This document shows positions 3,688 through 25,934 of a DNA stretch of 28,140 nt, piece after piece. Numbering within the stretch: the stretch's first letter is position 1; each line of letters starts with the position of its first letter. The position numbers and the translations under genes were made by a program. Where the stretch lies: the NCBI GenBank assembly GCA_016931015.1, contig JAFGFP010000096.1, forward strand, positions 1-28,140. The letters run 5' to 3'. Source of the stretch: Dehalococcoidales bacterium. Its GTDB lineage: Bacteria; Chloroflexota; Dehalococcoidia; Dehalococcoidales; UBA5760. Below the pieces are notes generated by a model that was given only the letters and a program-made list of their open reading frames with translations, was not told the DNA's origin and searched no databases.

Positions 3688-4407
3688 ATGGTAAAAGTAA
3701 GAGATGCCGGTGTTAAGTTAATCTGTCGCGACTGCGGGAGGCAGTTCCTATTTACCGAAGGCGAGCAGGAGTTCTACGAGCGGATGGGGTTCAACCCTCC
3801 CAGCCGGTGCCGGGACTGCCGCGCCATCAAAGACAAACAGAATGGCGACCGACACAACGGCCACCTCAGTTGCACCGAGTGCGGCGTCACGCTACAGAAC
3901 GGCGCCTCCGTTTACTGTGAGGAGTGTCTGAGAAGCCTGCAGCTAACCCAATTCAGCTGCTCCCAGTGTGGGGCAACACAAGGGGCAGATGCCCTGGTCT
4001 ATTGTGAAAGCTGCTTCAGAACGGTTCAACTTGATGCGGAACGGCAAACAGAAAGGTACAAAAGGTCAGCCAGCGCCGCAGAGTCGAAACTACAGGCCAC
4101 CGAGGCCACTAACGAGGAGATGCAGAGAGCGCTCTACGAAGCTAAGCAACGCATCGCCGAGCTGGAGCTGAAGACCGAGAACCTGAATCAGGACCTGGAG
4201 AAGGCATACCACTTCCAGGTTGCCTCGGGCTGGCTTAAACCAGCCCTGGACGACATCGCCGGAAGACTGAAAGCCCTGGAGCAAGCGGAGCGGGAGACCG
4301 AGACCAGCCTGGCAGCCGCCATTCAACGGGTGCAGGCGATATGCCGCAATACCAACCTGTGGCAGGTGATGAAACGCACCTTCAAACCGCACCGTAATCA
4401 AGACTAG
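3688..4407 (+). CDS. Zinc-ribbon protein (zf-trcl-like N-terminus, two further CxxC...CxxC units, C-terminal coiled coil), 239 aa
   Basis: Start re-called at ATG 3688 behind GGGAGG rather than 3541. LICRDCGRQFLFTEGEQEFY..MGFNPPSRCRDCR is the zf-trcl pattern; then CTEC..CEEC, CSQC..CESC and a heptad-rich helix. Confidence 0.75.
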   Translation: MVKVRDAGVKLICRDCGRQFLFTEGEQEFYERMGFNPPSRCRDCRAIKDKQNGDRHNGHLSCTECGVTLQNGASVYCEECLRSLQLTQFSCSQCGATQGADALVYCESCFRTVQLDAERQTERYKRSASAAESKLQATEATNEEMQRALYEAKQRIAELELKTENLNQDLEKAYHFQVASGWLKPALDDIAGRLKALEQAERETETSLAAAIQRVQAICRNTNLWQVMKRTFKPHRNQD

Positions 4408-4511
4408 ACTGATAAGCCTAGGGGATACCTAGCCGGAGCTGCTTTCCAGCACCATACGGGATGATACAACATCCCATCCCCACCCATTCCCCCCGGAACT
4501 CTCTGGTATCG

Positions 4512-4520
4512 TGGTATAAT
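4512..4520 (+). promoter_or_regulatory. Extended -10 promoter element TG-G-TATAAT
   Basis: Perfect sigma70 extended -10 consensus; no recognisable -35; next plus-strand ORF is ~600 nt downstream. Confidence 0.4.
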
Positions 4521-5120
4521 CCCTTCAATCCTTCCTTCAGCTGTTATTTCACGTCAGGCCGCATCAGCACAGCCGTCCCCTGAATTACAGCCAGACCAGA
4601 ACTTTTTTACAGGTAAAACCCAGGAGAATTCGTGGGGTTTTAGTCATCAAAAGACCTCCCCCCGGTTGAGAAGCAAACATAAGCCGTAAGGGCATCTGAG
4701 GTACAATAAACCACCCCGAGCCTTCCCAGCCCCTGCAACGACCGGCGATGGACACTAACTGGGCAATCAACTAAAATAGCTAAGAGGTTAAGAATGATGC
4801 TTAAGACCTCGCTAGGAGGCTGCGAGTGCTGTAGACTAGAATAATAGCACAGGGCGTGGGAAACCTCTCTGCAGAGTGAACTCACAGACTGGTTTTTAGC
4901 TAGTAATTACTCTCCGTTAAGCTATTTCTGGTTATCAACACTTAGTCCCACCAAGTTACCGCTCAGTTTCAGGTCCCGTCTCGCTTTCCCAAGCGCTTCT
5001 CCGGCAACATCCCGCCAAAATATCCCACGTAATTCATAGGACGCCGCTATTCGTATCCACAAGTAGCAAGGGCGCCGCCGTGAGATTCTCTGTGCTTACT
5101 ACGCCTCTAAGGAGGAGAAA

Positions 5121-5786
5121 TTGATAACATTAGAAAAGCAATTTACGGTCACCCCGGAGCAGGTATGCTGCGAAATGGGATATGCTGCCGACTCCGCGCC
5201 GGCGCCCCGAGTGGCCGCTCTGATTAAGGAACACTTAGACGGGGCGCAGCCGCTGATAAAGCCCTCGTATTCATATCTCTTAAGACGGATAGAGCTGGTC
5301 TTCGGGGCCAGCGTTCTCCTCGAGGACGGGGCCGTCTTCCACAGCCGGACCATCGCCCGTCTGTTGGAGAGGGCCGATGAGGTTGCCGTCTTCGCGCTGA
5401 CCATAGGTGGCGAACTCGAAGACGAAGCGGCCCGGCTGGCCCGGGAGGGCTTTGTCCTCCAGGCCACTGTGCTGGAGACGATAGGCTCGCTCTACACTCA
5501 GCAACTGACCGACTGGGTAGAGACACGAATCGAAGACCTGGCACACGTCCGGGGACAAACTATAAGCCGGCGTTTCAGCCCCGGCTACTGCGACTGGGAC
5601 GTAAGCCAGCAGAAGACGGTCTTCCACCTGCTGCGGGACGACTGCGCCGGGATTAGCCTGACCGATAGCTGTCTCATGATTCCCCGCAAGTCAATGTCAG
5701 GCATTATCGGCATCGGGGACAGTGGCATTACCGACTACAACCCTTGCCGGACCTGTGAGAAACACGACTGCGTTGGCAGGAGGTAA
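5121..5786 (+). CDS. Stand-alone vitamin B12-dependent methionine synthase activation-domain protein
   Basis: TTG start after AAGGAGGAG; VAVFALTIG, RRFSPGYCDWD, GISLTDSCLMIPRKSMSGIIG; C-terminal CxxCxxxxC (PCRTCEKHDC). Confidence 0.85.
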   Translation: MITLEKQFTVTPEQVCCEMGYAADSAPAPRVAALIKEHLDGAQPLIKPSYSYLLRRIELVFGASVLLEDGAVFHSRTIARLLERADEVAVFALTIGGELEDEAARLAREGFVLQATVLETIGSLYTQQLTDWVETRIEDLAHVRGQTISRRFSPGYCDWDVSQQKTVFHLLRDDCAGISLTDSCLMIPRKSMSGIIGIGDSGITDYNPCRTCEKHDCVGRR

Positions 5787-5799
5787 CGCCCGAGAGCCT

Positions 5800-7239
5800 A
5801 TGATACGAAAAGGACTAACCGGCGGCAGCTATAAGCCGCTCAGCGAGGATGCCATCTCCCGAATCCACGATACCGCCATGCGGGTAATCGAGGAGATCGG
5901 CTTCGAGGTAAACTCGGATACGGCCCGGGAGCTCTTTAAGAAGGCCGGGGCGCAGGTGGACGAGGAAAAGAGACGCGTCCGTATGCCCCGGGAGAGGGTT
6001 ATGGAGCTGATTGCCCAGGCCCCCTCCGAGGTCAGGCTCTGCGGCCGGGACGAAAAGCACGACATCCTGTTGGGGGGAAGCCGGGTCTACGCCGGCACCG
6101 GTGGGACGGCGCTCTATATCTACGAACCGGATACCGACCGGAAACGGCCGGCAAATCTGGAAGACCTGAGGTGTTTCGCCCGGCTGGTGGAGCAGCTCGA
6201 CAATATCCATCTTTTCATGCTGTCCACCTACCCCGGCGAGCTGCCGGTGGAGGACATCGACGCCAACCGCTTCTTCGCCGGTCTCACCAACACCGCCAAG
6301 CACGTCATGGGCGGCGTCTATACCCCGGACGGTGTCAAGCGAGTCATAAAGATGGCCGAAATCATCGCCGGCTCCGCCGAAGCGCTCCACGAGCGGCCGC
6401 TAATCTCCATGATAACCTGCAGCATTAGCCCCCTCAAGCTGGACGGCCACTACGGCGACCTGGTAGTGGCCATTGCCCGGGAGGGTATCCCCCTGGTATG
6501 CCCCTCCGAGCCCCTGTGCGGGGCCACCTCCCCCATCACCCTGGCCGGAAACCTGGTAATCCAGACCACGGACTCGCTGATGGGGGTAATACTAACTCAG
6601 ATAGCTAACCCCGGGACACCGGCCGTCTTCGGCTCGGTAGCCACCAGCACCGACCTCCGCGACCTGAGATACCTGGCTGGCTCGGTGGAGATGGGGCTAA
6701 TCAACGCCGCCGGGGCCCAGATGGCCCAGTTCTACAAGCTGCCCTTTTACGCCACGGGCGGCATGAGCGACGCTAAATTGCTGGATGCCCAGAGCGGCTA
6801 CGAGTCGGCCACTACCAGCCTGCTCTGCGCCCTGGCCGGAGCCAACTTCATCCACGACGCCGCCGGGCTGATGGAGTTCGCCCTGACGGCCTGCTTCGAG
6901 AAACTGGTGATTGACAACGAGATACTGGGCATGGTGATGCGGGCTGTCGAGGGCATCAGGGTGGACGATGAAACACTGGCCTACGACCTCATCAAGCAGG
7001 TGGGGCCGGGCGGCCACTTCGTGGCTACCAAGCACACCAGGCACTTCATGCGCAGCGAACACTACCAGCCGCAGCTCAGCGACCGCAGCAGCCGGGAGCA
7101 GTGGCAGGCGGAGGGCGAGAAGGCCACCTGGCAGCGGGCGGCCGAGGTGGTAAAGCGCTTGCTTAAGACCCACAGCTACCGCCTGCCCGATGAGATGCGA
7201 GAGCGCATCATCTCAGAGATACCGGGGATTAAGGCCTGA
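5800..7239 (+). CDS. Trimethylamine methyltransferase (MttB) superfamily protein, non-pyrrolysine, 479 aa
   Basis: Start re-called at ATG 5800 (MIRKGLTGG) so it does not overlap the upstream gene. LSEDAISRIHDTAMRVIEEIG, GATSPITLAG, GGMSDAK..DAQSGYE, AGANFIHDAAG, GPGGHF. No in-frame TAG. Confidence 0.93.
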   Translation: MIRKGLTGGSYKPLSEDAISRIHDTAMRVIEEIGFEVNSDTARELFKKAGAQVDEEKRRVRMPRERVMELIAQAPSEVRLCGRDEKHDILLGGSRVYAGTGGTALYIYEPDTDRKRPANLEDLRCFARLVEQLDNIHLFMLSTYPGELPVEDIDANRFFAGLTNTAKHVMGGVYTPDGVKRVIKMAEIIAGSAEALHERPLISMITCSISPLKLDGHYGDLVVAIAREGIPLVCPSEPLCGATSPITLAGNLVIQTTDSLMGVILTQIANPGTPAVFGSVATSTDLRDLRYLAGSVEMGLINAAGAQMAQFYKLPFYATGGMSDAKLLDAQSGYESATTSLLCALAGANFIHDAAGLMEFALTACFEKLVIDNEILGMVMRAVEGIRVDDETLAYDLIKQVGPGGHFVATKHTRHFMRSEHYQPQLSDRSSREQWQAEGEKATWQRAAEVVKRLLKTHSYRLPDEMRERIISEIPGIKA

Positions 7240-7325
7240 GAGATATTTCCCCCAGGGCCGCCAGGTCTCAACCGCAAGCCTAAACCAGGTGCGCCGGGGG
7301 TAAATCCCAAGAGGAGAAGAATTAC

Positions 7326-8852
7326 ATGGCACGACCGGGAGTTGTAATCGAGCCGTATCAAAGGCTCAAGCTAACGCAGGTGGAGCGGATACACCGCGCC
7401 TCTTTAGAGATACTGACCGACCCCGGCATCATCTGCTTTAACCGCACCGCCGCCGAGCTATTCGCCGACCACGGCGCCGAGGTCACCGCCACGGGGCGGG
7501 AAGAAGCGCCTACCTGGCAGCTCAAGATTCCGGAGCGCCTGGTTAATGAAGCCATCGGCAGTTGCCCCAAGACGGTGAAGCTGGGGGCGCGTAACCAAGA
7601 TAACTGCCTCGTCCTGGACGGCGCCGAGGCCAGGGTGCACTTCGCTTCTGGCTCCGAAGCCAACAAGTGGCTCGAGGTGGACGTGGAGACCTTCGTCAGT
7701 AAGCGCGACCCGTCCCGGGAGACGGAGCTGGCGGTCTTCCGGGAGGAGAAAGGCACCGCCGGGCGGCTGGCCCAGGCGGCCCGTCTCTGCGAGCGCCTCG
7801 ACTCCTGGGACAGCTTCCTGCGCACGGTAAATATTCAGGACGAGGACATTAACCGCGATAACAAGGACGTTAACAAGTTCTTTGTCGCCCTTAACAATAC
7901 CACCAAGCACGTTATGTCCGGGCTGACCGAGATTACCAAGCTAAAGAGCGTGGTCAGGATGGCCCGGATTATCGCCGGGGGAGAAGACGAGTTCCAAAAG
8001 AACCCGATTCTCTCCTTTATCACCTGCGTGGTAAAGAGCCCCCTGCAACTGGTTGACGACACCACCCAGAAGGCGATAGAGATTGCCCGACTGGGCATCC
8101 CATTGGTTATCTCCAGCTCCCCTCAGGGCGGCTCCACCGCCCCCATTAAAGAGGAGGGCATGGTCGCCCAGATAAACGCCGAGATTCTGACCGGGATAAC
8201 GCTTACCCAGATGGTAAACAAGGGCGCCCCCGTGCTCTACGGCAGCGTCCCGGTGAGAACCCGCATGGACAACCTCTACGATTCCTACGGCGTCCCCGAA
8301 TTCAGCCAGTATAACGTAGACTGCATCCAGATGGCGCGCCACTACGGCCTGCCCTGTTACTCCACGGCCGGGGTCTCCGACGTCGCGATACCCAGCATCC
8401 AGGCCGCCGTGGAGAGGCTCTTTTCGCACATCTTAGTCACCCTGGCCGGAGCCCATTATGTCCACTACGCCTTCGGGCTTCTGGAACGGACTAACGTCTT
8501 CTGCCCCGTCCAGGCAGTCTTGGACGACGTCCACATCGACATGGTGAAGCGGTTCGTCCGGCAGCCGGAGGTGAGCGAGGCCAGCATTACGGACTGCCTC
8601 ACCCAGGTAAGGAAGGTTATGACTACCTCCCACAAGCTCTACGTCCGTTTCGTGCGTCACGCCCTTCGCTCCGGTGGGATAACGCCACCCTACCCCTTCG
8701 AAAGTAAAGGCATGACCGATGAGACCCTGGTTCTGGCCCGGCAGCGGTTGGAAAAGCTCCTCTCACTGCCGGCGCCCCACCTCGGCCAGGATATTATAGA
8801 CCGCATCTTTAAGGAGGTGCCTGGCCTGCTACCCAGGCTGCGGAATCTTTAG
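7326..8852 (+). CDS. Second, more divergent MttB-superfamily methyltransferase, non-pyrrolysine
   Basis: IERIHRASLEILTDPG, ALNNTTKHVM, VKSPLQL, GGSTAP, GAPVLYG, ARHYGLPCYSTAGVSD, AGAHYVH.AFGLLE; GAGGAG RBS. Confidence 0.85.
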   Translation: MARPGVVIEPYQRLKLTQVERIHRASLEILTDPGIICFNRTAAELFADHGAEVTATGREEAPTWQLKIPERLVNEAIGSCPKTVKLGARNQDNCLVLDGAEARVHFASGSEANKWLEVDVETFVSKRDPSRETELAVFREEKGTAGRLAQAARLCERLDSWDSFLRTVNIQDEDINRDNKDVNKFFVALNNTTKHVMSGLTEITKLKSVVRMARIIAGGEDEFQKNPILSFITCVVKSPLQLVDDTTQKAIEIARLGIPLVISSSPQGGSTAPIKEEGMVAQINAEILTGITLTQMVNKGAPVLYGSVPVRTRMDNLYDSYGVPEFSQYNVDCIQMARHYGLPCYSTAGVSDVAIPSIQAAVERLFSHILVTLAGAHYVHYAFGLLERTNVFCPVQAVLDDVHIDMVKRFVRQPEVSEASITDCLTQVRKVMTTSHKLYVRFVRHALRSGGITPPYPFESKGMTDETLVLARQRLEKLLSLPAPHLGQDIIDRIFKEVPGLLPRLRNL

Positions 8853-8868
8853 ATTACGGAGAGTAACC

Positions 8869-9555
8869 ATGACGCAAGAAGATATTATCAATCTGATTAA
8901 AGAAAACGTGATTCAGGGAAGGGTCACCCAGGACGACGAGGGGCTGGACGAGGGCATGGTCGGCAAGCCCGGGGTGACCGAGCTCATCGACGAAGCCCTG
9001 GCGGCCGGTATCGAGGTTAAAGACATCATCGCTAAGGGGCTCAGCGCCGGTATGGAAATCGTCGGCGATAAGTTCAGCAGCGGCGAGTTCTTCATCCCCG
9101 ACATGCTCGCCTCGGCGGAAGCCGTCGGCGCCGCCATGGAGAAGCTGGAACCGCATCTCGCCAAAAGCGGCATCAAGGCCAAGGGCAAGATACTGATTGC
9201 CACCGTGAAGGGCGACCTGCACGATATCGGCAAGAACATCGTCTCGATACTGCTGCGCGGGGCCGGTTACACCGTCAAAGACCTGGGGAACGACATCGAG
9301 CCGCAGACCATCGTAGCCGCGGTAAGAGAGGAGAAGCCCCAGTTCCTGGGCCTCTCGGCCCTGCTCACCAGCACCATGACCAGCATGCAGGATACCATCG
9401 AGGCTCTTAAAGAGAGCGGCCTCAGAGACGGGGTGAAGGTAATTATCGGCGGGGCGCCGGTCTCGGAGGAGTTTGCCAAGAGCATCGGGGCCGACGGCTA
9501 TGGCTCCGACGGCTTCCAGGCAGTCGAGACCGTGGAGTCCCTGGCTGCCGGCTAG
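8869..9555 (+). CDS. Cognate corrinoid (B12-binding) protein, MttC/MtbC-like
   Basis: Cap domain (GMEIVGDKFSSGEFFIPDML) plus Rossmann B12 domain with DxHxxG (GDLHDIGKN), LSALLT and IIGGAP. Confidence 0.95.
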   Translation: MTQEDIINLIKENVIQGRVTQDDEGLDEGMVGKPGVTELIDEALAAGIEVKDIIAKGLSAGMEIVGDKFSSGEFFIPDMLASAEAVGAAMEKLEPHLAKSGIKAKGKILIATVKGDLHDIGKNIVSILLRGAGYTVKDLGNDIEPQTIVAAVREEKPQFLGLSALLTSTMTSMQDTIEALKESGLRDGVKVIIGGAPVSEEFAKSIGADGYGSDGFQAVETVESLAAG

Positions 9556-9566
9556 GAAGAGACTGG

Positions 9567-10793
9567 ATGAGCGAGAAGGATGCCTACAACGAAGCCCTCA
9601 GGAGCGGGCAGTATGCCAAACCCGGGGGGCTGTTGGGTAAGTACGATAACGTCCGCCGCTTCTGGGAAGACGAGGAGCTCGGGCTCTACCTGAGACCCTA
9701 CCTGGAAGAACTAATCGCCAGGAAGAAGAAAAACGCCGAAGGCTTGCGAGTCTTAGACCTGGGCTGCGGCAGCGGCGACGGCCTGGAGTTACTCTCCGGG
9801 ATTACCCGCCGCGACGCCCCCGTCTCGGAGCACGATAGCGCCGTGATACCCGCCGCTATGCTGGAGCGCTACCAGGGGATTGACATTAACCAGGGACTCC
9901 TGGAACAGGCGCGCAGTATCTACGGGGACAGGGAGAACATCGCCTTCACCGACGCCGATATAAACAACTACGACCTGAGCGGCGACGTCCCCTACGACCT
10001 TTACCTGGCTAACTACGGGACACTGTCCCACAACAGTGACGAGCAGACGGTGGCCATCCTGAGCCGCATCGCCGGGCACGCCAAAGACGGCGCCCTGGTA
10101 CTCGTCGACTGGCTGGGGCGCTTTTCCTACGAGTGGCAGACCCTGTGGACGCATGATTTCGAGCACAACCAGTGGATGAACTACACCATCTCTTATATCT
10201 ACGCCGGCGACCGGCAGAAACAGGCGGCGCTAACCTACTTCCCGCTGCGGCTGATGGCGCGCGCCGAAGCGCTCGATATCTACCAGCGGGTCAAGGCGGA
10301 GACGGGCGATGCCATCACCCTGCGCCAACTGGCCGACCGCTCATCGTTCGTCGGCCGCCACATGGATACTGCCCAGTATAACCCCCACTGCCCGCCGCTG
10401 CGGAGGCTGGTTAACTCGCTCTTCGAGCCCAACGCAGCCACCGACCTGGACGAACTGTTGATTCGCTACGTCCCTATGGAAGGCTTCCCCGAGATAAACG
10501 CCTACTACGAGAAGTTTACCGACTGGTGGAACCACCTCGTAATGGCCACCACAGCCGGGCTGGCGGGAAAGACGCCGCCCGAAGCACCCGGAGAAATCCC
10601 CGACACTGCCGTAGAGGTGCTCAGCAACATGAAGGGAGTCCTGAAACTGGCGGCGATGCTGAAGATAGGTAACCCCCGGGCCAGCCTGGTCGAGCCCCAG
10701 CTCGGCTATTGCCTCCGCGAGCTTGAGATGGGCCTGCAACAAGGGCTGGGCTGCGGACACGGGTTGGTGGCCCTCTTTGAGATTGTAAAGTAA
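9567..10793 (+). CDS. Class I SAM-dependent methyltransferase, 408 aa, with long N- and C-terminal extensions; substrate unknown
   Basis: Motif I VLDLGCGSGDG, motif II YQGIDIN, later DLYLANYGTLSH. Confidence 0.8.
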   Translation: MSEKDAYNEALRSGQYAKPGGLLGKYDNVRRFWEDEELGLYLRPYLEELIARKKKNAEGLRVLDLGCGSGDGLELLSGITRRDAPVSEHDSAVIPAAMLERYQGIDINQGLLEQARSIYGDRENIAFTDADINNYDLSGDVPYDLYLANYGTLSHNSDEQTVAILSRIAGHAKDGALVLVDWLGRFSYEWQTLWTHDFEHNQWMNYTISYIYAGDRQKQAALTYFPLRLMARAEALDIYQRVKAETGDAITLRQLADRSSFVGRHMDTAQYNPHCPPLRRLVNSLFEPNAATDLDELLIRYVPMEGFPEINAYYEKFTDWWNHLVMATTAGLAGKTPPEAPGEIPDTAVEVLSNMKGVLKLAAMLKIGNPRASLVEPQLGYCLRELEMGLQQGLGCGHGLVALFEIVK

Positions 10794-10833
10794 CCCTTAC
10801 CGGGCTGATACGGGCTATGAGGAGGTTAAGAGC

Positions 10834-12351
10834 ATGAGCGGACTTGCCGTCGCCTACGGGAAGAAACCCAAGCTAGGTGATATTAACGCCATGATGCGGG
10901 CCATCGCCCACCGCGGCCCCACCGCCTCCGGGGTGTATCAAGCGGACGGCATCGTCATGGCTCAGAACTATCTTCGGGCCGACGGCGCCCGCCCCGATAG
11001 CGACGTTCCGGTGCGCAGCCCTGATAACCCCAATCTCGCCATCTGCTACGACGGCCAGATGGGCAACTGGGCGGAGCTGGCCTCCGCACACGGCGTCCCC
11101 GACGGGCCCTTCCGAGAGGAGCGCCTGATACTGGCCCTCTACCAGAAATATGGCCGGGGAATGCTCGAATATCTCGGTGACACCATCTTCGCCCTGGTCA
11201 TCTTCGACGGGAAGGACATCTTAGCGGCACGCGACCTGCTCGGTATCAAGACCCTCTTCTACGCCGAGAGAAACAGCACCCTGTTTTTTGCCTCCGAGCT
11301 TAAAGAGCTACTACCAGTGAGTAAGGCGGTCTATGAGTTCCCCAACGGCTGCGCCATGGACGGCAGCGGACATCTGAGCAGCTTCGCCGAGCTACCCGAG
11401 AAACCACCTCGCCCCTGGAGGCGCAGCCCGAAGCGGATGGCCGCTGACATCAGGGGCATCATCGAGCAGAGCTTCCGTAACCGGATTGACTTCAGCCTGC
11501 CCACGGGGGGCCTGCTCAGCGGCGGTCTGGACAGCAGCGTCATTAACTCTATCGCCAGCCGGGCCTACAAAGAGAAAAAAGGCAAGGCGGCGAGACTGAA
11601 AACCTTCGCTCTGGGCGTGGGCGAGAGTAACGACATTGTGTCAGCCCGCCTGGTAGCCAGTCACATCGACTCGGAGCACCACGAGCTTATCGTCAGCCTC
11701 GAGGACATGCTCGCGGTTCTCCCCAAGGTTATCTACCACCTGGAGAGCTTCGACCCCTCGCTGGTAAGAAGCTCGGTAGCCAACTACCTTGTCTCCCGTT
11801 ACGCCCACGAACAGGGCATCCAGATACTGCTCTCCGGCGAGGGGGGGGACGAGGTCTTCTGCGGCTATCGCTATCTTGCCGACTACCCCGCCGAGGCCCT
11901 GTTCGGCGAACAGATGGCCTGTATCGGCCGACTGCACAACAACGCCTCCCTGCGCCTGGACCGGATGAACATGGCTAACTCGATACGGGTGGTGGCGCCG
12001 CTGATTTCAGGGAAGCTGCTCGACTACGCCCTGGCCATAGCCCCCGAGTACAAGCAAATGCCCGACGGGGCCGACAAAATCGAGAAGTGGATTATGCGCA
12101 AGGCCTACGAAAAGCAGCTGCCACAGCCGGTAGTCTGGCGGCGCAAGCAGGAGTTTTCCCAGGGCTCAGGCTCAGCCGACGCCCTGACCGCCTACTTCGA
12201 GGAGCAAGTCCCGGACCGGGAACTGACTGAGGCCCAGGCCGCTCAGCCGCTAATCCGCAGTAAGGAAGAGCTCCACTACTTCCGACTCTTCACCGGGTAC
12301 TTCGGCAGCGGCCCGGCCGTGGCCACGGTGGGCCAATGGCTCTGCCTCTAG
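10834..12351 (+). CDS. Asparagine synthase (AsnB)-like ATP-dependent amide ligase with a degenerate glutaminase domain
   Basis: HRGP, ARDLLGIKTLFY, FASELK, PP-loop LLSGGLDSS, LSGEGGDEVFCGY. N-terminus is MSGL, not MCGI. Confidence 0.85.
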   Translation: MSGLAVAYGKKPKLGDINAMMRAIAHRGPTASGVYQADGIVMAQNYLRADGARPDSDVPVRSPDNPNLAICYDGQMGNWAELASAHGVPDGPFREERLILALYQKYGRGMLEYLGDTIFALVIFDGKDILAARDLLGIKTLFYAERNSTLFFASELKELLPVSKAVYEFPNGCAMDGSGHLSSFAELPEKPPRPWRRSPKRMAADIRGIIEQSFRNRIDFSLPTGGLLSGGLDSSVINSIASRAYKEKKGKAARLKTFALGVGESNDIVSARLVASHIDSEHHELIVSLEDMLAVLPKVIYHLESFDPSLVRSSVANYLVSRYAHEQGIQILLSGEGGDEVFCGYRYLADYPAEALFGEQMACIGRLHNNASLRLDRMNMANSIRVVAPLISGKLLDYALAIAPEYKQMPDGADKIEKWIMRKAYEKQLPQPVVWRRKQEFSQGSGSADALTAYFEEQVPDRELTEAQAAQPLIRSKEELHYFRLFTGYFGSGPAVATVGQWLCL

Positions 12352-12373: not shown

Positions 12374-12411
12374 AAAAGCCCCCGATTTCCGGATCGGTTT
12401 CGGGGGCTTTT
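12374..12411. terminator. Bidirectional intrinsic terminator between the convergent AsnB-like gene and wtpA
   Basis: AAAAGCCCCCGA...TCGGGGGCTTTT, a 12-bp inverted repeat with A/T tails on both sides. Confidence 0.85.
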
Positions 12412-12434: not shown

Positions 12435-13403
12435 CTAGTCGAGGTATTTCTGCAGCGACTCGGGCGCCAGGCTCGCATCGTTGGTCTGTGCCGGAACCAC
12501 CGCTGGTTGACCGTAGGCTTCCATGATAGCAATACCTTGGTCACTCAGCAGATAATCAATCCAGGCTACGCCCAGGTCGTGTTCGGGCGAGTCGGTGGGT
12601 ATGGTAACCCCGTAAACGATGGCCGTACCCCTTTGCTCGATGGTAGTCCCCGGCTCGGTACCGGCAATCTCCACCACGGCGGTATCGTAGAAATCCCTGT
12701 AGGTCTCGTCGGCCAGATTTATCTGAGGTGGCAGTTTTACGTAGTTTAGCTTTTGTTCTGCAGCCACCGAGGTGTACTCGAAGGCATAGTCCAGGTCGCC
12801 CGACTCCAGAAGGGCAATCAGGTCCACGGACTTAGGCCGCATAACGTCCCCTTCGGCCTGGTAGAGGGCGTCATATAACCCGGGAGCGCCGTAGTGCTCT
12901 TCGGCCAGCTGCCAAACCATGAGCGTCCGGTAGCCGCAGGGATCCTGGTCGGGGTCGCTGCGGCCGTAGTTAACGCCGTCTCTCTGCAGTATCTCATACC
13001 AGTTATCGCTATTTATCTCAGCAGCGAACTGCGAACTATCGGTGTAGGCGAGACACATCTGGTTGGTGGCGAAGATGATGTACCAGTCGGCAAAATCAGG
13101 GAACATCAGCTGCGGGATTAAGTTGTAATCAGCCGAGCCGATAACGCCACACTCCCGCTGGAGCTCGGTAACCTTACGAATGGTGGTGGCGCTGCCGGCT
13201 CCTTCGGATAAGACCTCCACGTCGGGATAGATCTCATTGAAACTTCTGGTTACTTCATCAAACGGTGCGGTCAAGCTCCCGGCGTGGAAGATATGCAGCG
13301 TCCCCGATAATCCTGCCTCCTGGGCCGGCTTAGCACAGCCAGCCGCCAGGCTTAAGACCAGGCTCACTGCCAGGCAAAAACCAATAATGGGAAATTTCTT
13401 CAT
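12435..13403 (-). CDS. wtpA: Tungstate/molybdate ABC transporter substrate-binding lipoprotein, WtpA type
   Basis: Lipobox LAAG-C; IFHAGSL, EGAGS, GRSDPDQDPCGYR, LDYAFEYTSVA, IVYGVTIP are WtpA-like, not ModA- or TupA-like. Confidence 0.88.
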   Translation of the reverse strand: MKKFPIIGFCLAVSLVLSLAAGCAKPAQEAGLSGTLHIFHAGSLTAPFDEVTRSFNEIYPDVEVLSEGAGSATTIRKVTELQRECGVIGSADYNLIPQLMFPDFADWYIIFATNQMCLAYTDSSQFAAEINSDNWYEILQRDGVNYGRSDPDQDPCGYRTLMVWQLAEEHYGAPGLYDALYQAEGDVMRPKSVDLIALLESGDLDYAFEYTSVAAEQKLNYVKLPPQINLADETYRDFYDTAVVEIAGTEPGTTIEQRGTAIVYGVTIPTDSPEHDLGVAWIDYLLSDQGIAIMEAYGQPAVVPAQTNDASLAPESLQKYLD

Positions 13404-13440
13404 CTGTCTTCCTCCTCAAAGTTTGCTCGTGTAAGCATTG

Positions 13441-13470
13441 AATCTATTATTAATCTATTATTAATCTATA
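13441..13470 (-). promoter_or_regulatory. 11-bp tandem repeat (ATTAATAATAG x2 plus partial copies) in the wtpC-wtpA spacer
   Basis: Minus strand reads TATAGATTAATAATAGATTAATAATAGATT, ~38 nt upstream of the wtpA ATG; 18/19 identical to 1936-1954. Confidence 0.65.
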
Positions 13471-13482
13471 GGCCGCCCTCCT

Positions 13483-14529
13483 CTAGAAGATATTAACCGC
13501 CGATGCCTTAAAGGTAATGTAGACTTGCCTGCCCACCGAAAGCTCCATAGCTTCAAAAGAGTTCCTGGTAACCAGGCAGACGAAGTCGGGAGGCACGTTT
13601 ATCGTCAGCAGCAGCGTGGAGCCCTTATCGCTAACCCCGGTAATCGTCCCCGCAAACGAGTTACGGGCGCTGGAGGGGAAGGGAGCGTGGGAAACGATGA
13701 TATCCTCGGGGCGGAGAGAAGCATGGCACCGGCCGTGGTGCTCGGTGACCACCGCCAGGCGGACCCCGTCAACCTCGAACAGGGCGCCCTCGCTCTCATC
13801 GCTACGCACTTCTCCCAGGAAAATATTCCTCACCATAGCGAAGCGGGCGACGAACTCGGAGCCGGGCTGACGGAATATCTGCTCCGGAGTGCCTATCTGC
13901 TGAATAGCGCCGTCGCCGATTACGGCGACCCGGTCGGCCAGGGCGATGGCCTCCTCGAAATCATGGGTAACGTGAACCGTGGTCACCCGGTACTGCTCGT
14001 GGAGCCGCTTGAGCTCACGCTGCAGGACCTCCCGGCTGTTCGGGTCGAGGGCGCTGAGCGGCTCATCGAGCAGAAGCAGCCGGGGACGGACGCTCAAGGC
14101 CCGGGCCAGGGCTATCTTCTGCTTCTCGCCGCCGCTCAAGGTATCCGGTTTGCGGTCGAGCAGGTGGTCTATCCCCAGCAGCTCGGAGAGCCAGGCCAGG
14201 GTCGCCTCCATCTCGGCAGGGCTATCCTTCCGAATTTTCAAGCCGAAGGTAATGTTGTCCCTTACCGTGAGGTGGGGAAAGAGCATCTGGTCCTGATAGA
14301 CGATGCTGATACCACGCTTCTCCGGCTGAAGCCCGGTAACCTCCCGTCCCCCCAACCAGATGCGCCCCCGCTTCAGGGGATAGAGCCCGGCCATGGACTC
14401 AAGAAGAACGGTCTTACCGGCCCCGGTCGGCCCCAGTATCACGAAGTACTCGCCGGCCGAGATGTCGAGGTTGGCCCCGCGCAGCACGAAGTCCCCCAGG
14501 TCCACCCAGAGGTCTCTTACCTCAATCAC
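13483..14529 (-). CDS. wtpC: Tungstate/molybdate ABC transporter ATPase with C-terminal TOBE domain
   Basis: Walker A GPTGAGKT, signature LSGGE, Walker B LLLDEP, H-loop VTHD; C-terminal SARNSFAG...ITFKASAV (TOBE). Confidence 0.9.
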   Translation of the reverse strand: MIEVRDLWVDLGDFVLRGANLDISAGEYFVILGPTGAGKTVLLESMAGLYPLKRGRIWLGGREVTGLQPEKRGISIVYQDQMLFPHLTVRDNITFGLKIRKDSPAEMEATLAWLSELLGIDHLLDRKPDTLSGGEKQKIALARALSVRPRLLLLDEPLSALDPNSREVLQRELKRLHEQYRVTTVHVTHDFEEAIALADRVAVIGDGAIQQIGTPEQIFRQPGSEFVARFAMVRNIFLGEVRSDESEGALFEVDGVRLAVVTEHHGRCHASLRPEDIIVSHAPFPSSARNSFAGTITGVSDKGSTLLLTINVPPDFVCLVTRNSFEAMELSVGRQVYITFKASAVNIF

Positions 14530-15319
14530 CCTTCCGACCCCCCTTTACCAGGGTTCTGAGAACGACGAAGATAATAAGGCTGATTAAGATGAGCAATACC
14601 GCCACCGGCCGGGAGTAGGTCAGCCCGTAGGTCTCGAAGCGCTCGTAGATGAGGGTAGGGGCAATCATGGGGTGATAGGCGAGAATAATGACCGCCCCGA
14701 ACTCGCTTATGCCGCGCGCCCACATCATGATGTTCCCCGAGAGGATGCTCCTCCAGGCTAGGGGGAAGGAAATCTTGAAGAAGGTCTGCCAGGGCGAAGC
14801 GCCCAGGGTGCGGGCCACCTTTTCCAGCCGGACGTCCACCTTTTTGAAGCCCTCTTTGGCCGAATCTATGAGGAAGGGCACGCTGACGAAGAGCATGGCC
14901 ACCACGATACCGGCCGTGGAATCAACAAAATGGATACCCACCGCATCGAAGGCCCGGCCGGCCAGGAAGTTACGCCCGAAGACGAAAAGCAGGGCGATAC
15001 CGGCGGCGGTGTGGGGCACCACGATGGGGACATCAATCAGCCCCTCGACTATTCTCTTGCCCCGAAACTCGTGACGGGCCAGGAGGTAGGCCAGGGGCAC
15101 CCCGAGCACGAAACCGACCCCGGTGGCGATAAGGGCCGTATACAGGGTGAGCAGTATGGCTTTGGTTACCTCAGGGTCGAAAAGGGTCTCCCGCAGGATA
15201 TCGGGGTCAGAGGCAAAAATCATGCGGAAGAGAGGCACGATAATGAACAGGAAGATAACGGCCCCGAGCAGTATAAAGGTCAGCGTCAGCTTATTTGACC
15301 TTACCCACTCCTTTAGCAA
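14522..15319 (-). CDS. wtpB: Tungstate/molybdate ABC transporter permease
   Basis: TTG start 5 nt after GGAGG; GVPLAYLLAR, IDVPIVVPHTAAG, EAA-like loop LEKVARTLGAS, WARGISEFGAV. Confidence 0.9.
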   Translation of the reverse strand: MLKEWVRSNKLTLTFILLGAVIFLFIIVPLFRMIFASDPDILRETLFDPEVTKAILLTLYTALIATGVGFVLGVPLAYLLARHEFRGKRIVEGLIDVPIVVPHTAAGIALLFVFGRNFLAGRAFDAVGIHFVDSTAGIVVAMLFVSVPFLIDSAKEGFKKVDVRLEKVARTLGASPWQTFFKISFPLAWRSILSGNIMMWARGISEFGAVIILAYHPMIAPTLIYERFETYGLTYSRPVAVLLILISLIIFVVLRTLVKGGRKGD

Positions 15320-15379: not shown

Positions 15380-15409
15380 ACCAAACTGCTCTACTACTCA
15401 ATATTATCT

Positions 15410-15520
15410 TTCCTTTCCAAACACGGGAGGCGTCACTGTTTCCCATGACACCCTGGGTTTTACTAACCACACGGCCGGATGCCATGCCCTTACGGGTTTA
15501 GGCATACGGCTCGGAAAGCC
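15410..15520 (-). ncRNA. Moco (molybdenum/tungsten cofactor) riboswitch-class RNA motif
   Basis: Minus strand has a CTTTCC...GGAAAG closing stem, GTAA and GAAA loops, and the 3' block GCCTCCCGTGTTTGGAAAGG, matching the conserved end of the E. coli moaA leader as recalled (GCCUCCCGUAUUUGGAAAGG). It sits upstream of a Mo/W transporter. Confidence 0.88.
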
Positions 15521-15527
15521 TACTTTC

Positions 15528-15556
15528 AAACTAGCACAACAATAAGATACCGTCAA
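15528..15556 (-). promoter_or_regulatory. Sigma70-type promoter for the riboswitch-wtpBCA transcript
   Basis: TTGACG (15556-15551), 17-nt spacer, TG-C-TAGTTT (-10 at 15533-15528); the aptamer begins about 10 nt downstream. Confidence 0.7.
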
Positions 15557-22856: not shown

Positions 22857-24416
22857 ATGCCGACTAATGAAGAGCTCAATGCGGAGCTTGCCGCTAAAGA
22901 GGCCGAGATTAAGGCGATGGGCGGGCCGGAACAGGTCAAAAAGCAGCACGAGCTTAACAAGCTCACCGTACGCGAGAGAATCGACCTGCTTATCGACCCG
23001 GATACCTTCACGGAAACCGGGATGCATGTGAAACACCACTGCCATCACTTCGGCCTGGACAAGGTCGACATCCCGGCCGACGGAGTGGTTACCGGCTTCG
23101 GCAAGATAAACGGGCGCACGGTATGTTGCTACGGCGAGGACTTCACCTCGCGCGGCGGCAGTCTGGGCGAGATGCACGCTTGGAAGATAGCCCGAACCAT
23201 GGACCTGGCCGCCAAGATGCGGGTGCCCGTGGTCGGTATGCTGGATACCGGCGGCGCCCGTATTCAGGAGGGCATAAACGCCCTAGACGGCTACGGCCAG
23301 ATATTCCACCGCAATACCATTTACTCCGGAATCGTGCCCCAGATAACGCTGAGCCTGGGGCCCTGCGCCGGCGGCGCGGTGTACTCCCCGGCCCTTACCG
23401 ACTGGATACTCATGGTCAAAGGATCAAGCTACCTGTATGTCACCGGCCCCGACGTTGTCAAGGCGGTGATGAGCGAGGAGGTCACCCACGAGGAGCTGGG
23501 CGGGGCCATGGTGCACAACGCCAAGAGCGGGGTGGCCCACTTCGCCTATAACAGCGACGCCGATTGCATCGCAGGCTGTAAAGAGCTGCTGAGCTACCTG
23601 CCGCAGAGTGTTTACGACGCACCGGCGGCCAGCCACCAGCCGCCGGACGACTCCCCCGACCGCACCTGCCCCGAGCTGAACGCCATCATCCCCGAAAACC
23701 CTCGCCAGGTTTACGACATGAAGCAGGTGATTAAGGCTATCGTCGACGACGGCAAGATTCTGGAGCCCCACCAGCACTACGCCCGGAACATGGTCGTCTG
23801 CTTCGCCCGTATGGACGGCTATGTCATCGGCATCATCGCCAACCAGCCCAGCTTTATGGCCGGAGTCCTCGATATTAACGCCTCGGACAAGGCCGCCCGC
23901 TTCGTCCGCTTCTGCGACGCCTTTAACATCCCCCTGCTGACACTGATTGATGTTCCCGGCTATATGCCGGGCACCCACCAGGAGTTCGGGGGGGTTATCC
24001 GTCACGGAGCCAAGCTGCTCTCCGCCTACTCCGAGGCTACCGTACCCAAGATCTCCATCTGCACCCAGAAGGCCTACGGCGGGGCCCAGATTTCGATGTG
24101 CTCCAAGTCCATCGGCGCCGACCTTTATATGGCCTGGCCCACGGCCCAGCTTGCTGTCATGGGCGCCGAAGGCGCCGCCGCCATTATCTTCCGCCGTGAA
24201 ATCGCCAAGGCCAGCGACCAGCAGGCCAAGCTCCAGGAGATGACCGAGCTGTATCGCAATACCTTCAACAACCCCTACGTGGCCGCCGCCGGCGGCTTCG
24301 TCGATAAGGTCATTAAACCCGCAGACTCACGCCGCGAGATTATTACCGCTCTGGAAGCCCTGCGCCATAAGCAGGAAGCGCGCCCCTGGAAGAAGCACGG
24401 CAACATCCCCCTGTAA
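22857..24416 (+). CDS. Acyl-CoA carboxyltransferase subunit (PccB/MmdA/transcarboxylase 12S family)
   Basis: PADGVVTG.G, DTGGARIQEG, GPCAGGAVYSPALTD, FVRFCDAFNIP, DVPGYMPG..QE.GG, KAYGGA, WKKHGNIPL. Confidence 0.95.
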   Translation: MPTNEELNAELAAKEAEIKAMGGPEQVKKQHELNKLTVRERIDLLIDPDTFTETGMHVKHHCHHFGLDKVDIPADGVVTGFGKINGRTVCCYGEDFTSRGGSLGEMHAWKIARTMDLAAKMRVPVVGMLDTGGARIQEGINALDGYGQIFHRNTIYSGIVPQITLSLGPCAGGAVYSPALTDWILMVKGSSYLYVTGPDVVKAVMSEEVTHEELGGAMVHNAKSGVAHFAYNSDADCIAGCKELLSYLPQSVYDAPAASHQPPDDSPDRTCPELNAIIPENPRQVYDMKQVIKAIVDDGKILEPHQHYARNMVVCFARMDGYVIGIIANQPSFMAGVLDINASDKAARFVRFCDAFNIPLLTLIDVPGYMPGTHQEFGGVIRHGAKLLSAYSEATVPKISICTQKAYGGAQISMCSKSIGADLYMAWPTAQLAVMGAEGAAAIIFRREIAKASDQQAKLQEMTELYRNTFNNPYVAAAGGFVDKVIKPADSRREIITALEALRHKQEARPWKKHGNIPL

Positions 24417-24461
24417 GCCGACCGGCAACAAGAAACTTTGAGAAAGTAAGGAGACCGAATC

Positions 24462-25934
24462 GTGGCCACAAAGAATCCCCTGAAGATTACCGACGTTACC
24501 TTCCGTGACGGGCACCAGTCGATACTGGCCACCCGGATGAGAACCGAAGACATGGAGGCCATCGCCGAGGAGATGAACAAGGCCGGCTTCTACTCTATGG
24601 AGGTCTGGGGCGGCGCCACTTTCGACGTCCCCACCCGCTTCCTCAACGAAGACCCCTGGCACCGGCCGCGCATCCTAAAGAAGCTGATGCCCGACACCCC
24701 CCTCCAGATGCTGCTCCGGGGACAGAACCTGGTGGGCTACCGCCACTACGCCGACGACGTGGTAACCGCCTTCGTCCACCACGCCGCCGAGGTCGGCATC
24801 GACATCTTCCGCGTCTTCGATGCCGTGAATGACGAGCGCAACTTCGAGACCGCACTCCGGGCGATTAAGGACTGCGGCAAGCACGCTCAGCTCTCTATCT
24901 GCTACTCCCTCACCGAGCGCAAGATGGGGGGCCCGGTCTACAATCTTGAATATTATGTCAACAAGGCCCGTATCCTGCAGGACATGGGCGCCGACAGCCT
25001 GTGCATCAAGGACATGGCCGGGCTTATCGCCCCTGACGATGCCTATACTCTAATCAAGTCCCTCAAGGAAGTGCTCAAGATACCGGTGCACCTGCATACC
25101 CACTACACCAGTGGCATGGCCTCGATGAGCTGCCTTAAGGCCATCGAAGCCGGAGTGGACATCATCGATACCGCCCTGGCCCCCTTCGCCTTGCGCACCT
25201 CACACCCGGCGGTGGAGCCGATTGTCGTCGCCCTGCAGGGAACCCCCAGAGACACCGGGCTTGACCTGAATCACCTCTTCAAGCTGGGGCAGTATATCGA
25301 GTCCATCGCCCCCAAGTACCGCGACTTCCTTAACACCACCCGGACCTCGGTCATCGATACCGGCGTCCTGGTACACCAGGTCCCCGGGGGCATGATTTCT
25401 AATTTGGTCGCCCAACTCAAGGAGTCCAACGCTTTAGATAGAATAGACGAGGTGTACGAAGAAGTACCGCGCGTTAGAAAAGAGCTCGGCTACCCGCCCC
25501 TGGTCACCCCGACCAGCCAGATTGTGGGGGTGCAGGCGGTGCAGAACGTCCTGGTCGGGAGATACAAGCTGGTATCGCGCCAGGTGCAGGACTACGTCTT
25601 CGGGCTCTACGGCAAGCCCCCCGCCCCCATCGACCCCGAGGTTCAGGAGCTGGTGCTCAAGCACTACCCGCGGGGAAAGACGCCCGTCACCTGCCGTGCC
25701 GCCGACTTGCTCGAGCCGGAGCTGGATAAGGCCCGAGAGCTGGTCGCCGACTTCACCCAGGACATCGGCGACGTGCTCATCGCCGCCCTCTACCCGATTA
25801 CCGGGCTGCGCTTCCTGAAGTGGAAGTACGGCCTGGAGACGCCGCCGCCGGAGATGAAAGGGAAGACCCTGGAAGACATCAAGCGTGAGGACGAGCTTAT
25901 CGCCAGAGTAAAATCCGGTAAGCCGCTAACATGA
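24462..25934 (+). CDS. Pyruvate/oxaloacetate carboxyltransferase subunit (transcarboxylase 5S/PycB/OadA-like) without a biotinyl domain
   Basis: GTG start; RDGHQS.LATRM, EVWGGATFD, MLLRGQNLVGY, CIKDMAG, LHTHYTSG, QVPGGM.SN, PPLVTPTSQIVG. No EAMKM motif. Confidence 0.93.
   Translation: MATKNPLKITDVTFRDGHQSILATRMRTEDMEAIAEEMNKAGFYSMEVWGGATFDVPTRFLNEDPWHRPRILKKLMPDTPLQMLLRGQNLVGYRHYADDVVTAFVHHAAEVGIDIFRVFDAVNDERNFETALRAIKDCGKHAQLSICYSLTERKMGGPVYNLEYYVNKARILQDMGADSLCIKDMAGLIAPDDAYTLIKSLKEVLKIPVHLHTHYTSGMASMSCLKAIEAGVDIIDTALAPFALRTSHPAVEPIVVALQGTPRDTGLDLNHLFKLGQYIESIAPKYRDFLNTTRTSVIDTGVLVHQVPGGMISNLVAQLKESNALDRIDEVYEEVPRVRKELGYPPLVTPTSQIVGVQAVQNVLVGRYKLVSRQVQDYVFGLYGKPPAPIDPEVQELVLKHYPRGKTPVTCRAADLLEPELDKARELVADFTQDIGDVLIAALYPITGLRFLKWKYGLETPPPEMKGKTLEDIKREDELIARVKSGKPLT

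Follow-up and report, generated by a model that had tools for sequence, protein, structure and literature searches.

The 28,140-nt stretch of DNA analyzed here (the window) corresponds to contig C117 in a metagenome-assembled genome (MAG) of a Dehalococcoidales bacterium, which has a size of 1.15 Mb and is 80% complete. Between positions 5121 and 12351 it carries six plus-strand genes in one orientation, separated by gaps of 13, 86, 16, 11 and 40 nt, and this operon is one copy of a widespread, conserved cassette of anoxic saline-sediment bacteria. The first gene, ACT (5121–5786), encodes a 221-aa stand-alone MetH-type activation protein that matches PF02965 with 34 bits (cut-off 25). It is followed by MttB1 (5800–7239; PF06253, 386 bits), a 479-aa non-pyrrolysine MttB-family methyltransferase, whose open reading frame (ORF) opens with a GTG at 5722 but yields a protein of the same length as its orthologues from the ATG at 5800, and by MttB2 (7326–8852; PF06253, 185 bits), a divergent 508-aa non-pyrrolysine paralogue. 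Next come a corrinoid protein, Cor (8869–9555), with a cap (PF02607, 58 bits) and a B12-binding domain (PF02310, 100 bits); MT (9567–10793), a 408-aa class I S-adenosylmethionine (SAM)-dependent methyltransferase with the motif I sequence LDLGCGSGDG; and a 505-aa AsnB-like ATP-dependent amide ligase that begins with MSGL (10834–12351; PF00733, 198 bits). A consensus scan, the only basis for this feature, revealed a promoter-like site (TGGACA-17-TAAAAT, 4749–4777, plus strand) about 340 nt upstream of ACT, whereas an Rfam search of positions 4380–5200 (E ≤ 1) found no riboswitch or leader element there. A first-pass annotation of the same DNA had described six co-oriented genes with gaps of about 11–86 nt and the domains named above, and all six ORFs and their domains were confirmed; it had also placed a terminator at 12374–12411, where a terminator-like hairpin does exist but occupies 12386–12406 (plus strand) and is common to the operon and a convergent gene.

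To determine how far this arrangement is conserved, we combined genomic contexts fetched by identity with a GTDB scan (26 loci) and a metagenome scan that used a query built from 11 MT sequences and reached more distant MT sequences (80 loci). The same gene order, ACT–MttB1–[pterin-binding methyltransferase]–MttB2–Cor–MT–[ligase]–[Opu importer], was found in more than 100 loci, while the flanking genes varied from locus to locus; recurrence of one order between unrelated flanks shows that the arrangement lies far beyond chance. Counted over the loci with enough flanking sequence, MttB2 was present upstream of MT in 60 of 63, Cor lay upstream of MT, mostly immediately so, in 64 of 81, and MttB1 was found in 41 of 45. 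ACT was present in 27 of 43 loci and missing from the other 16. AsnB was located within 5 kb in 28 of 37 loci, and an AsnB or GCS2 ligase in 31 of 37. Opu importer components, namely ATPases with CBS domains, permeases and OpuAC binding proteins, were part of the cassette in 14 of 37. Thus the neighborhood is strongly conserved and links MT and the ligase to MttB and corrinoid genes in relatives, as the first-pass annotation had required of its proposal, and full-text literature searches returned no description of the gene set, which that annotation had put forward as a candidate for an undescribed pathway.

The DNA is also represented in metagenomes from sediment, marsh, salt marsh and marine sediment, and the cassette inhabits salt-marsh, marine and hypersaline sediments. 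Its MT homologues are labelled Dehalococcoidia or Dehalococcoidales; within the class, MT was detected in only 5 of 121 sampled genomes of Dehalococcoidia, indicating that the cassette is confined there to particular lineages. Three cassette contigs with 61–67% MT identity (L018, L019 and L027) were binned as Patescibacteria, Calditrichales and Deltaproteobacteria MAGs, reflecting either mis-binning or horizontal spread. One further locus (L130, 6131–8164) is a degraded cassette, in which two MttB fragments (90 and 248 aa) and a 350-aa ORF that fuses a B12-binding domain to MT are followed by a gene for S-adenosylhomocysteine (SAH) hydrolase.

The two MttB paralogues share 30% identity. Both scored below the equivalog cut-off of 525 bits for TIGR02369 (461 bits for MttB1, 263 bits for MttB2). 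The best PDB match of MttB1 was the glycine betaine methyltransferase MtgB (2qne/9yce; 293 bits, about 45% identity), while that of MttB2 was the pyrrolysine (Pyl)-type MttB 7xcl (138 bits). Both exceed the PF06253 cut-off, and both reading frames are open, with no in-frame UAG codon. The position of pyrrolysine is occupied by Met in MttB1 of the window (ATG, 6763–6765) and by Met, Thr, Ile or Ala across MttB1 sequences; in MttB2 it is Val in the window copy and Val or Ile among MttB2 sequences generally. A stretch within MttB1 (6763–6862, plus strand) matched the Rfam model PYLIS_3 with 49 bits (gathering score 38), and the match started exactly at the Pyl codon, AUG here and UAG in the consensus. 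We rejected this stretch as an RNA element, because the base pairs of the model are not kept; the match reflects coding kinship with true mttB.

In MtgB, glycine betaine is bound by Y97, R312, H348 and F356, of which R312 binds the acidic group of the substrate and is conserved in all members of known function, all of them using acidic quaternary amines (PMC13080624). When these residues were mapped from solved structures, MttB1 showed G, Y, D and A at the four positions, and MttB2 showed Y, Y and T at the last three; its residue at the Y97 position was Ser in a pairwise alignment and Gly in a wide alignment that had an indexing problem. The R312 position was Tyr in all 43 MttB1 and all 61 MttB2 sequences, as it is in 7xcl, and the H348 position of MttB2 was likewise Tyr, as in 7xcl. 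Judged by sequence, MttB1 and MttB2 are two uncharacterized clades. Their pockets resemble the trimethylamine (TMA) type and have neither pyrrolysine nor the acid-binding Arg, and they do not fit a characterized clade, a placement that would have told against the first-pass proposal. The known acidic betaines are unlikely to be the substrate.

Cor resembles MtgC and MtbC, although it scored below the cut-offs of both. It contains the DxHxxG motif, with a His (His118) that is invariant among orthologues. ACT, which starts at a TTG codon behind AAGGAGGAG, matches PF02965 over profile positions 120–246 of 273 only, and its sole PDB match was 1j6r, the stand-alone MetH activation protein of T. maritima. 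The SAM-binding R..PGY motif is kept, RRFSPGY of ACT aligning with RISPGY of 1j6r, and four cysteines (C157, C209, C212 and C217) were invariant in 17 orthologues. ACT is most naturally read as a putative corrinoid reactivator that would act by SAM-dependent reductive methylation in the place of RamA. In two loci (L009 and L021), the position of ACT is taken by a 105-aa protein (5922–6239 in L009), which resembles the Cys-rich C-terminus of ACT (60% identity) over its final 40 residues and nowhere else; this suggests that the CxxCxxxxC part may be a separable module.

The 86-nt gap between MttB1 and MttB2 (7240–7325, plus strand) is the slot in which 24 of 45 related loci carry a gene for a 269-aa pterin-binding (methyl-tetrahydrofolate:corrinoid) methyltransferase. 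This gene is absent from the slot in the window, where its loss has left the gap, and in its closest relative (L014). The genome does possess two pterin-binding paralogues on other contigs: AcsE, encoded within the CODH/ACS operon of contig C36, and an orphan on contig C78, both with about 34% identity to the cassette type. Among genomes with no pterin-binding gene in the cassette, 6 of 8 had an orthologue of the C78 gene (56–73% identity), as against 1 of 5 among those with the gene in the cassette; these counts are not independent, because the genomes are related to one another. This nearly complementary distribution suggests that the tetrahydrofolate (THF) link is required and can be met in trans. 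The Wood-Ljungdahl operon on C36 (1–14500), complete for the carbonyl and methyl branches, contains a MTHFR fragment and the genes for AcsE, the CFeSP subunits, ACS, CODH, FolD, CooC, RACo and FTHFS, and the genome carries a complete set of CODH/ACS, FTHFS, FolD and MTHFR. The only RamA-like (RACo_C_ter) gene is the RACo gene of this operon, and no gene of the URO-D family, the type of the methylcorrinoid:coenzyme M (CoM) methyltransferase (MT2), was found in the genome. The first-pass annotation had reported an MT2 and RamA to be absent and had regarded the cluster as a self-contained route. Neither is encoded in the window, but the pterin-binding gene belongs to 24 of the 45 related cassettes, the two paralogues and the RACo/RamA-like gene lie on other contigs, and self-containment does not hold where the THF link appears to be required and supplied in trans.

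MT keeps the SAM motifs, and more than 1600 homologues of near-constant length were found for it, with 63–84% identity. An AlphaFold2 (AF2) model from a single sequence reached a pLDDT (predicted local distance difference test) of only 36 and was replaced by a model from a 69-sequence alignment, with a pLDDT of 95. Fold searches with this model (PDB Foldseek, Swiss-Prot AFDB and VIA-align wide) returned generic class I folds only, with many of the top matches being amine N-methyltransferases, namely NTMT1, CypM, TylM1/DesVI, CalS10, GNMT, PEAMT and GSMT, and the helical C-terminal half of the protein (about 200 aa) had no structural match in the same searches. We conclude that MT represents a new family of class I SAM methyltransferases. 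A complex prediction for MT with the corrinoid protein gave a score of 0.00, which weighs neither for nor against binding.

An exhaustive representative search identified 325 MT relatives, including one Usp–MT fusion and three natural AsnB–MT fusions (P0154, 934 aa; P0158, 901 aa; and P0269) in which the GATase domain is strong and Cys-bearing and the glutaminase thus intact. P0154 and P0158 adjoin OpuA-type genes (ABC_tran and a permease–OpuAC protein), and neither has an MttB or corrinoid gene nearby. In another locus (L045), an AsnB gene comes directly after the gene for MT. The fusions beside OpuA importers, together with L045, indicate that MT and AsnB form an autonomous two-enzyme module tied to the transport of betaine-type solutes, and we infer that MT and the ligase build an N-methylated amide solute. 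The same fusions make an N-methylated amide or amino-acid derivative, as the first-pass annotation had suggested, a reasonable substrate class; the accompanying idea that the cassette captures a released amine as an amide found no support.

The cassette ligase scored 371 bits against the AsnB model PRK09431, under its cut-off of 499. Its N-terminus, MSGL, lacks the Cys nucleophile of class II amidotransferases, which leaves the ligase glutaminase-dead. The nucleophile position is Ser or Ala in most cassette copies, and Cys was found only in L036 and L039. The synthetase part, on the other hand, keeps the SGGxDSS PP-loop and the equivalents of E348, D351, Y357, R387 and K449 of E. coli AsnB. 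At the position of D384, a residue that we take to contact the alpha-amino group of aspartate in E. coli AsnB, all the Cys-bearing homologues compared have Asn, whereas the MSGL lineage has Ala and the MAGI lineage has Gly. If this role of D384 is right, both Cys-less lineages may have enlarged the pocket in a way that would fit an N-substituted aspartate, which we regard as a lead. Four types of enzyme fill the ligase slot: MSGL, as in the window; MAGI, 31–34% identical to MSGL; the Cys-bearing MCGI, in the most divergent loci; and a GCS2-family enzyme accompanied by an ALDH-like gene. Because three AsnB types or GCS2 can occupy the slot, what appears to be required is an amide-forming step and not one particular enzyme. 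In five loci (L009, L021, L055, L056 and L057), a gene of the opine-dehydrogenase family (PF02317) lies downstream of a MAGI-type ligase gene, together with an ABC importer of the PF04392 type instead of Opu. A housekeeping role of the cassette ligase as asparagine synthetase was rejected, because a canonical AsnB gene is located on contig C97, adjoining amt and gltB; its presence there implies that the cassette ligase is specialized.

Taken together, these results lead us to propose, tentatively and as something a little short of an even chance, that the cassette connects the methyl-THF pool with the N-methyl groups of a betaine-type solute, and that the corrinoid part feeds solute synthesis. 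The cassette probably makes or remodels a stress solute of this kind, for which an N-methylated amide of aspartate or asparagine is the probable candidate. As to whether the cassette works in the catabolic or the biosynthetic direction, we lean towards the biosynthetic one. MT, which consumes SAM, and the ligase, which consumes ATP, are irreversible, anabolic enzymes, and it is hard to see what either would do in an operon that demethylates a compound to gain energy. Most simply, the whole operon would act one way and make an N-methylated amide solute. Judged from standard free energies of formation, a primary or secondary amine should accept a methyl group from methyl-THF with a gain of roughly 20 kJ/mol, whereas quaternization should not be exergonic. 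In the proposed scheme, a pterin-binding methyltransferase, provided in trans in this genome, would load the corrinoid protein from methyl-THF, and MttB1 and MttB2 would hand the corrinoid-bound methyl groups to an amine precursor in thermodynamically easy steps; alternatively, MttB1 might load the corrinoid using an imported betaine. The SAM-dependent MT would perform the remaining methylation, most likely the final quaternization, the ligase would amidate, and so neutralize, a carboxylate with free ammonia, and ACT would re-methylate oxidized corrinoid using SAM. Overall, a compatible solute would be made at a reduced cost in SAM and ATP. The use of free ammonia and methyl-THF would save ATP, and this, like the scarcity of BCCT and OpuAC importers described below, is a weak hint compatible with synthesis. 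The part of the scheme in which the MttB enzymes run synthetically, so that methyl-THF N-methylates an amino-acid-derived precursor via the corrinoid and MT completes the quaternary ammonium, is in our judgment doubtful.

Several points weigh against synthesis of such a solute. To our knowledge, every characterized enzyme of the MttB superfamily is a demethylase that passes a methyl group from its donor to Co(I), and we know of no precedent for the reverse as a physiological reaction. The Opu importers, and a MarR regulator found in one locus (L128), are equally typical of catabolic operons. A betaine derived from Asn or Asp would retain its alpha-carboxylate, yet neither MttB has the carboxylate-binding Arg. 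No ligase was seen in six of the 37 loci with enough flank. The RNA runs of the same study recovered only fragments of the conserved B12-binding motif from other organisms and nothing of this one.

The alternative that survives best is a catabolic quaternary-amine:THF system, in which MttB1 and MttB2, acting on two substrates or in two steps, would remove methyl groups from an imported betaine of a non-acidic or amide type. The corrinoid protein and a pterin-binding MT2 would relay these groups to methyl-THF and so into the Wood-Ljungdahl pathway. We consider this reading possible but unlikely. It draws on the facts that all characterized family members are catabolic (PMC8604678, PMC12155760, PMC13080624) and that MttB1 is close in identity to MtgB, as well as on the pterin-binding methyltransferase, encoded in the cassette or supplied in trans, on the importers of 14 of the 37 loci and the regulator of L128, and on the Wood-Ljungdahl pathway of the host, which offers a methyl sink. 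MT and the ligase might then condition the substrate or the product, by analogy with the choline kinase step that precedes MthB in Eubacterium limosum. However, methylation by SAM followed by corrinoid-dependent demethylation would be futile, and we could not formulate a useful catabolic role for MT, which moreover occurs with AsnB as an autonomous fused enzyme in the absence of MttB. Import is also poorly represented in the genomes: a BCCT importer was found in none of the 13 cassette genomes and OpuAC in only six, so that neither was found in this 80%-complete MAG or in six others, all 13 genomes being incomplete MAGs.

It is also improbable, in our view, that MT is a CpaM-like SAM-dependent re-methylase or loader of the corrinoid protein, rather than a small-molecule N-methyltransferase, and that the remainder of the cassette is an ordinary demethylation system. 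The position of MT immediately 3′ of the corrinoid gene in most loci (64 of 81), one ORF in which a B12-binding domain is fused to MT (P0175), and the loss of ACT from 16 of 43 loci would all suit such a function. By contrast, the CpaM profile NF043040 gave MT only 20.7 bits, against a cut-off of 180, ACT would already supply this function in the window, the AsnB–MT fusions have no corrinoid partner, and the locus of P0175 is visibly degraded, so that its fusion may be an artefact.

We also asked how the host makes methionine and SAM. Contig C25 carries the end of ahcY (41–253) and metK (about 300–1441), which encode SAH hydrolase and SAM synthetase. Neither MetE (PF01717) nor the MetH homocysteine domain (PF02574) was found in any of the 13 cassette genomes, this one included, whereas about 59% of the sampled class members have one or the other; the same two families were also not found in any of five genomes of the same order that lack the cassette. 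An unrecognized methionine synthase may operate in these Dehalococcoidales. That the cassette itself is a split methionine synthase that regenerates SAM and keeps MT supplied with it, with ACT, the pterin-binding methyltransferase and Cor as three MetH modules and one MttB as the homocysteine methyltransferase, is nevertheless highly improbable: the missing families, the ahcY and metK genes, the AhcY gene that adjoins the cassette in three loci (L062, L080 and L130) and the precedent for a shared corrinoid protein in MtgBCDE of Ruegeria (PMC12478193) speak for it, but the absence of both families is a trait of the order and does not discriminate, MttB-family enzymes are not known to have a metal-thiolate site, and metK was found in none of the cassette loci.

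The flanks of the operon are unrelated to it in content. Upstream lie a two-component system and surface proteins, and downstream a convergent ABC transporter (12435–15319, minus strand), made up of a SBP_bac_11 binding protein, an ATPase with a TOBE domain and a permease. A molybdenum/tungsten cofactor (Moco) riboswitch (15394–15528, minus strand; 84 bits) is located upstream of the transporter genes, which probably encode a molybdate or tungstate importer. Further along the window (22857–25934, plus strand), a PF01039 carboxyltransferase gene adjoins a gene with HMGL-like and conserved-carboxylase domains, and the pair looks like a methylmalonyl-CoA or oxaloacetate decarboxylase/transcarboxylase.

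Betaines are major currencies of carbon, nitrogen and methyl groups in marine and saline sediments and precursors of methane, and a widespread, strongly conserved cassette for a betaine-type compound would mean that current models of these ecosystems lack either a solute or a pathway. The cassette defines a new SAM methyltransferase family with a confident structural model, and its natural AsnB–MT fusions offer a simple entry point to identifying the compound. Its two MttB clades appear to pair a TMA-type pocket with the loss of pyrrolysine, and a MetH-type reactivator seems to replace RamA. Should the synthetic direction hold, no earlier route to a betaine-type osmolyte would be both corrinoid-dependent and SAM-sparing, and the osmolyte might be an undescribed asparagine betaine. 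The cassette would overturn the view of the MttB family as demethylases only, and it would show how energy-limited anaerobes avoid the cost of SAM in osmolyte synthesis, an adaptation of energy-starved Wood-Ljungdahl organisms in saline sediments.

On the biosynthetic side, the cassette would have in common with betaine synthesis by GSMT and SDMT a class I N-methyltransferase for a trimethylammonium solute, but MT is a separate family that matches GSMT (5gwx) and SDMT (2o57) in generic fold only, with a Z score of about 14. The ligase recalls the AsnO step in the synthesis of the osmolyte N-acetylglutaminylglutamine amide (NAGGN), where an AsnB-family enzyme neutralizes the osmolyte carboxylate as an amide. 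Linkage to Opu-type importers is a further common feature, whereas we know of no corrinoid protein in those pathways.

Among the systems described so far, the cassette comes closest to MtgBCA/RamA, Pyl-MttB/MttC, the MthB phosphocholine pathway and the aerobic MtgBCDE (PMC13080624, PMC9842639, PMC12155760, PMC12478193). With the MtgB–MtgC–MtgA–RamA system of Desulfitobacterium hafniense, the cassette shares a Pyl-less MttB-family methyltransferase (MT1) and a cognate corrinoid protein, and about half of its copies, though not that of the window, also have a putative pterin-binding MT2. It differs in that MttB1 keeps none of the four glycine-betaine-binding residues, and in having a second, divergent MttB, a MetH-type activation protein for RamA, a SAM methyltransferase and an amide ligase. 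Compared with Pyl-MttB/MttC (7xcl), both paralogues have Tyr at the R312 position and MttB2 has Tyr at the H348 position; MttB2 is nearest 7xcl by sequence, while MttB1 matches PYLIS_3 and TIGR02369 (461 bits) but stays below the equivalog cut-off, and there is no UAG codon. The MthB phosphocholine pathway of Eubacterium limosum (PMC12155760; named in PMC13080624) likewise combines an MttB cluster with an ATP-dependent small-molecule enzyme, there a choline kinase, whereas the cassette has an AsnB- or GCS2-type amide ligase, an extra SAM methyltransferase and no acid-binding Arg. MtgBCD(E) of Ruegeria pomeroyi (PMC12478193) also shares separate MetH-like modules with an MttB-family enzyme; in the present case, however, MtgE (PF02574) was not found in the genome, the host is an anaerobe, and MT and the ligase are additional. 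In summary, the cassette shares the MttB–corrinoid–pterin core with the known systems but does not have their diagnostic substrate-site residues, lacks RamA and MtgE, and adds ACT, a new family of methyltransferases and an amide ligase.

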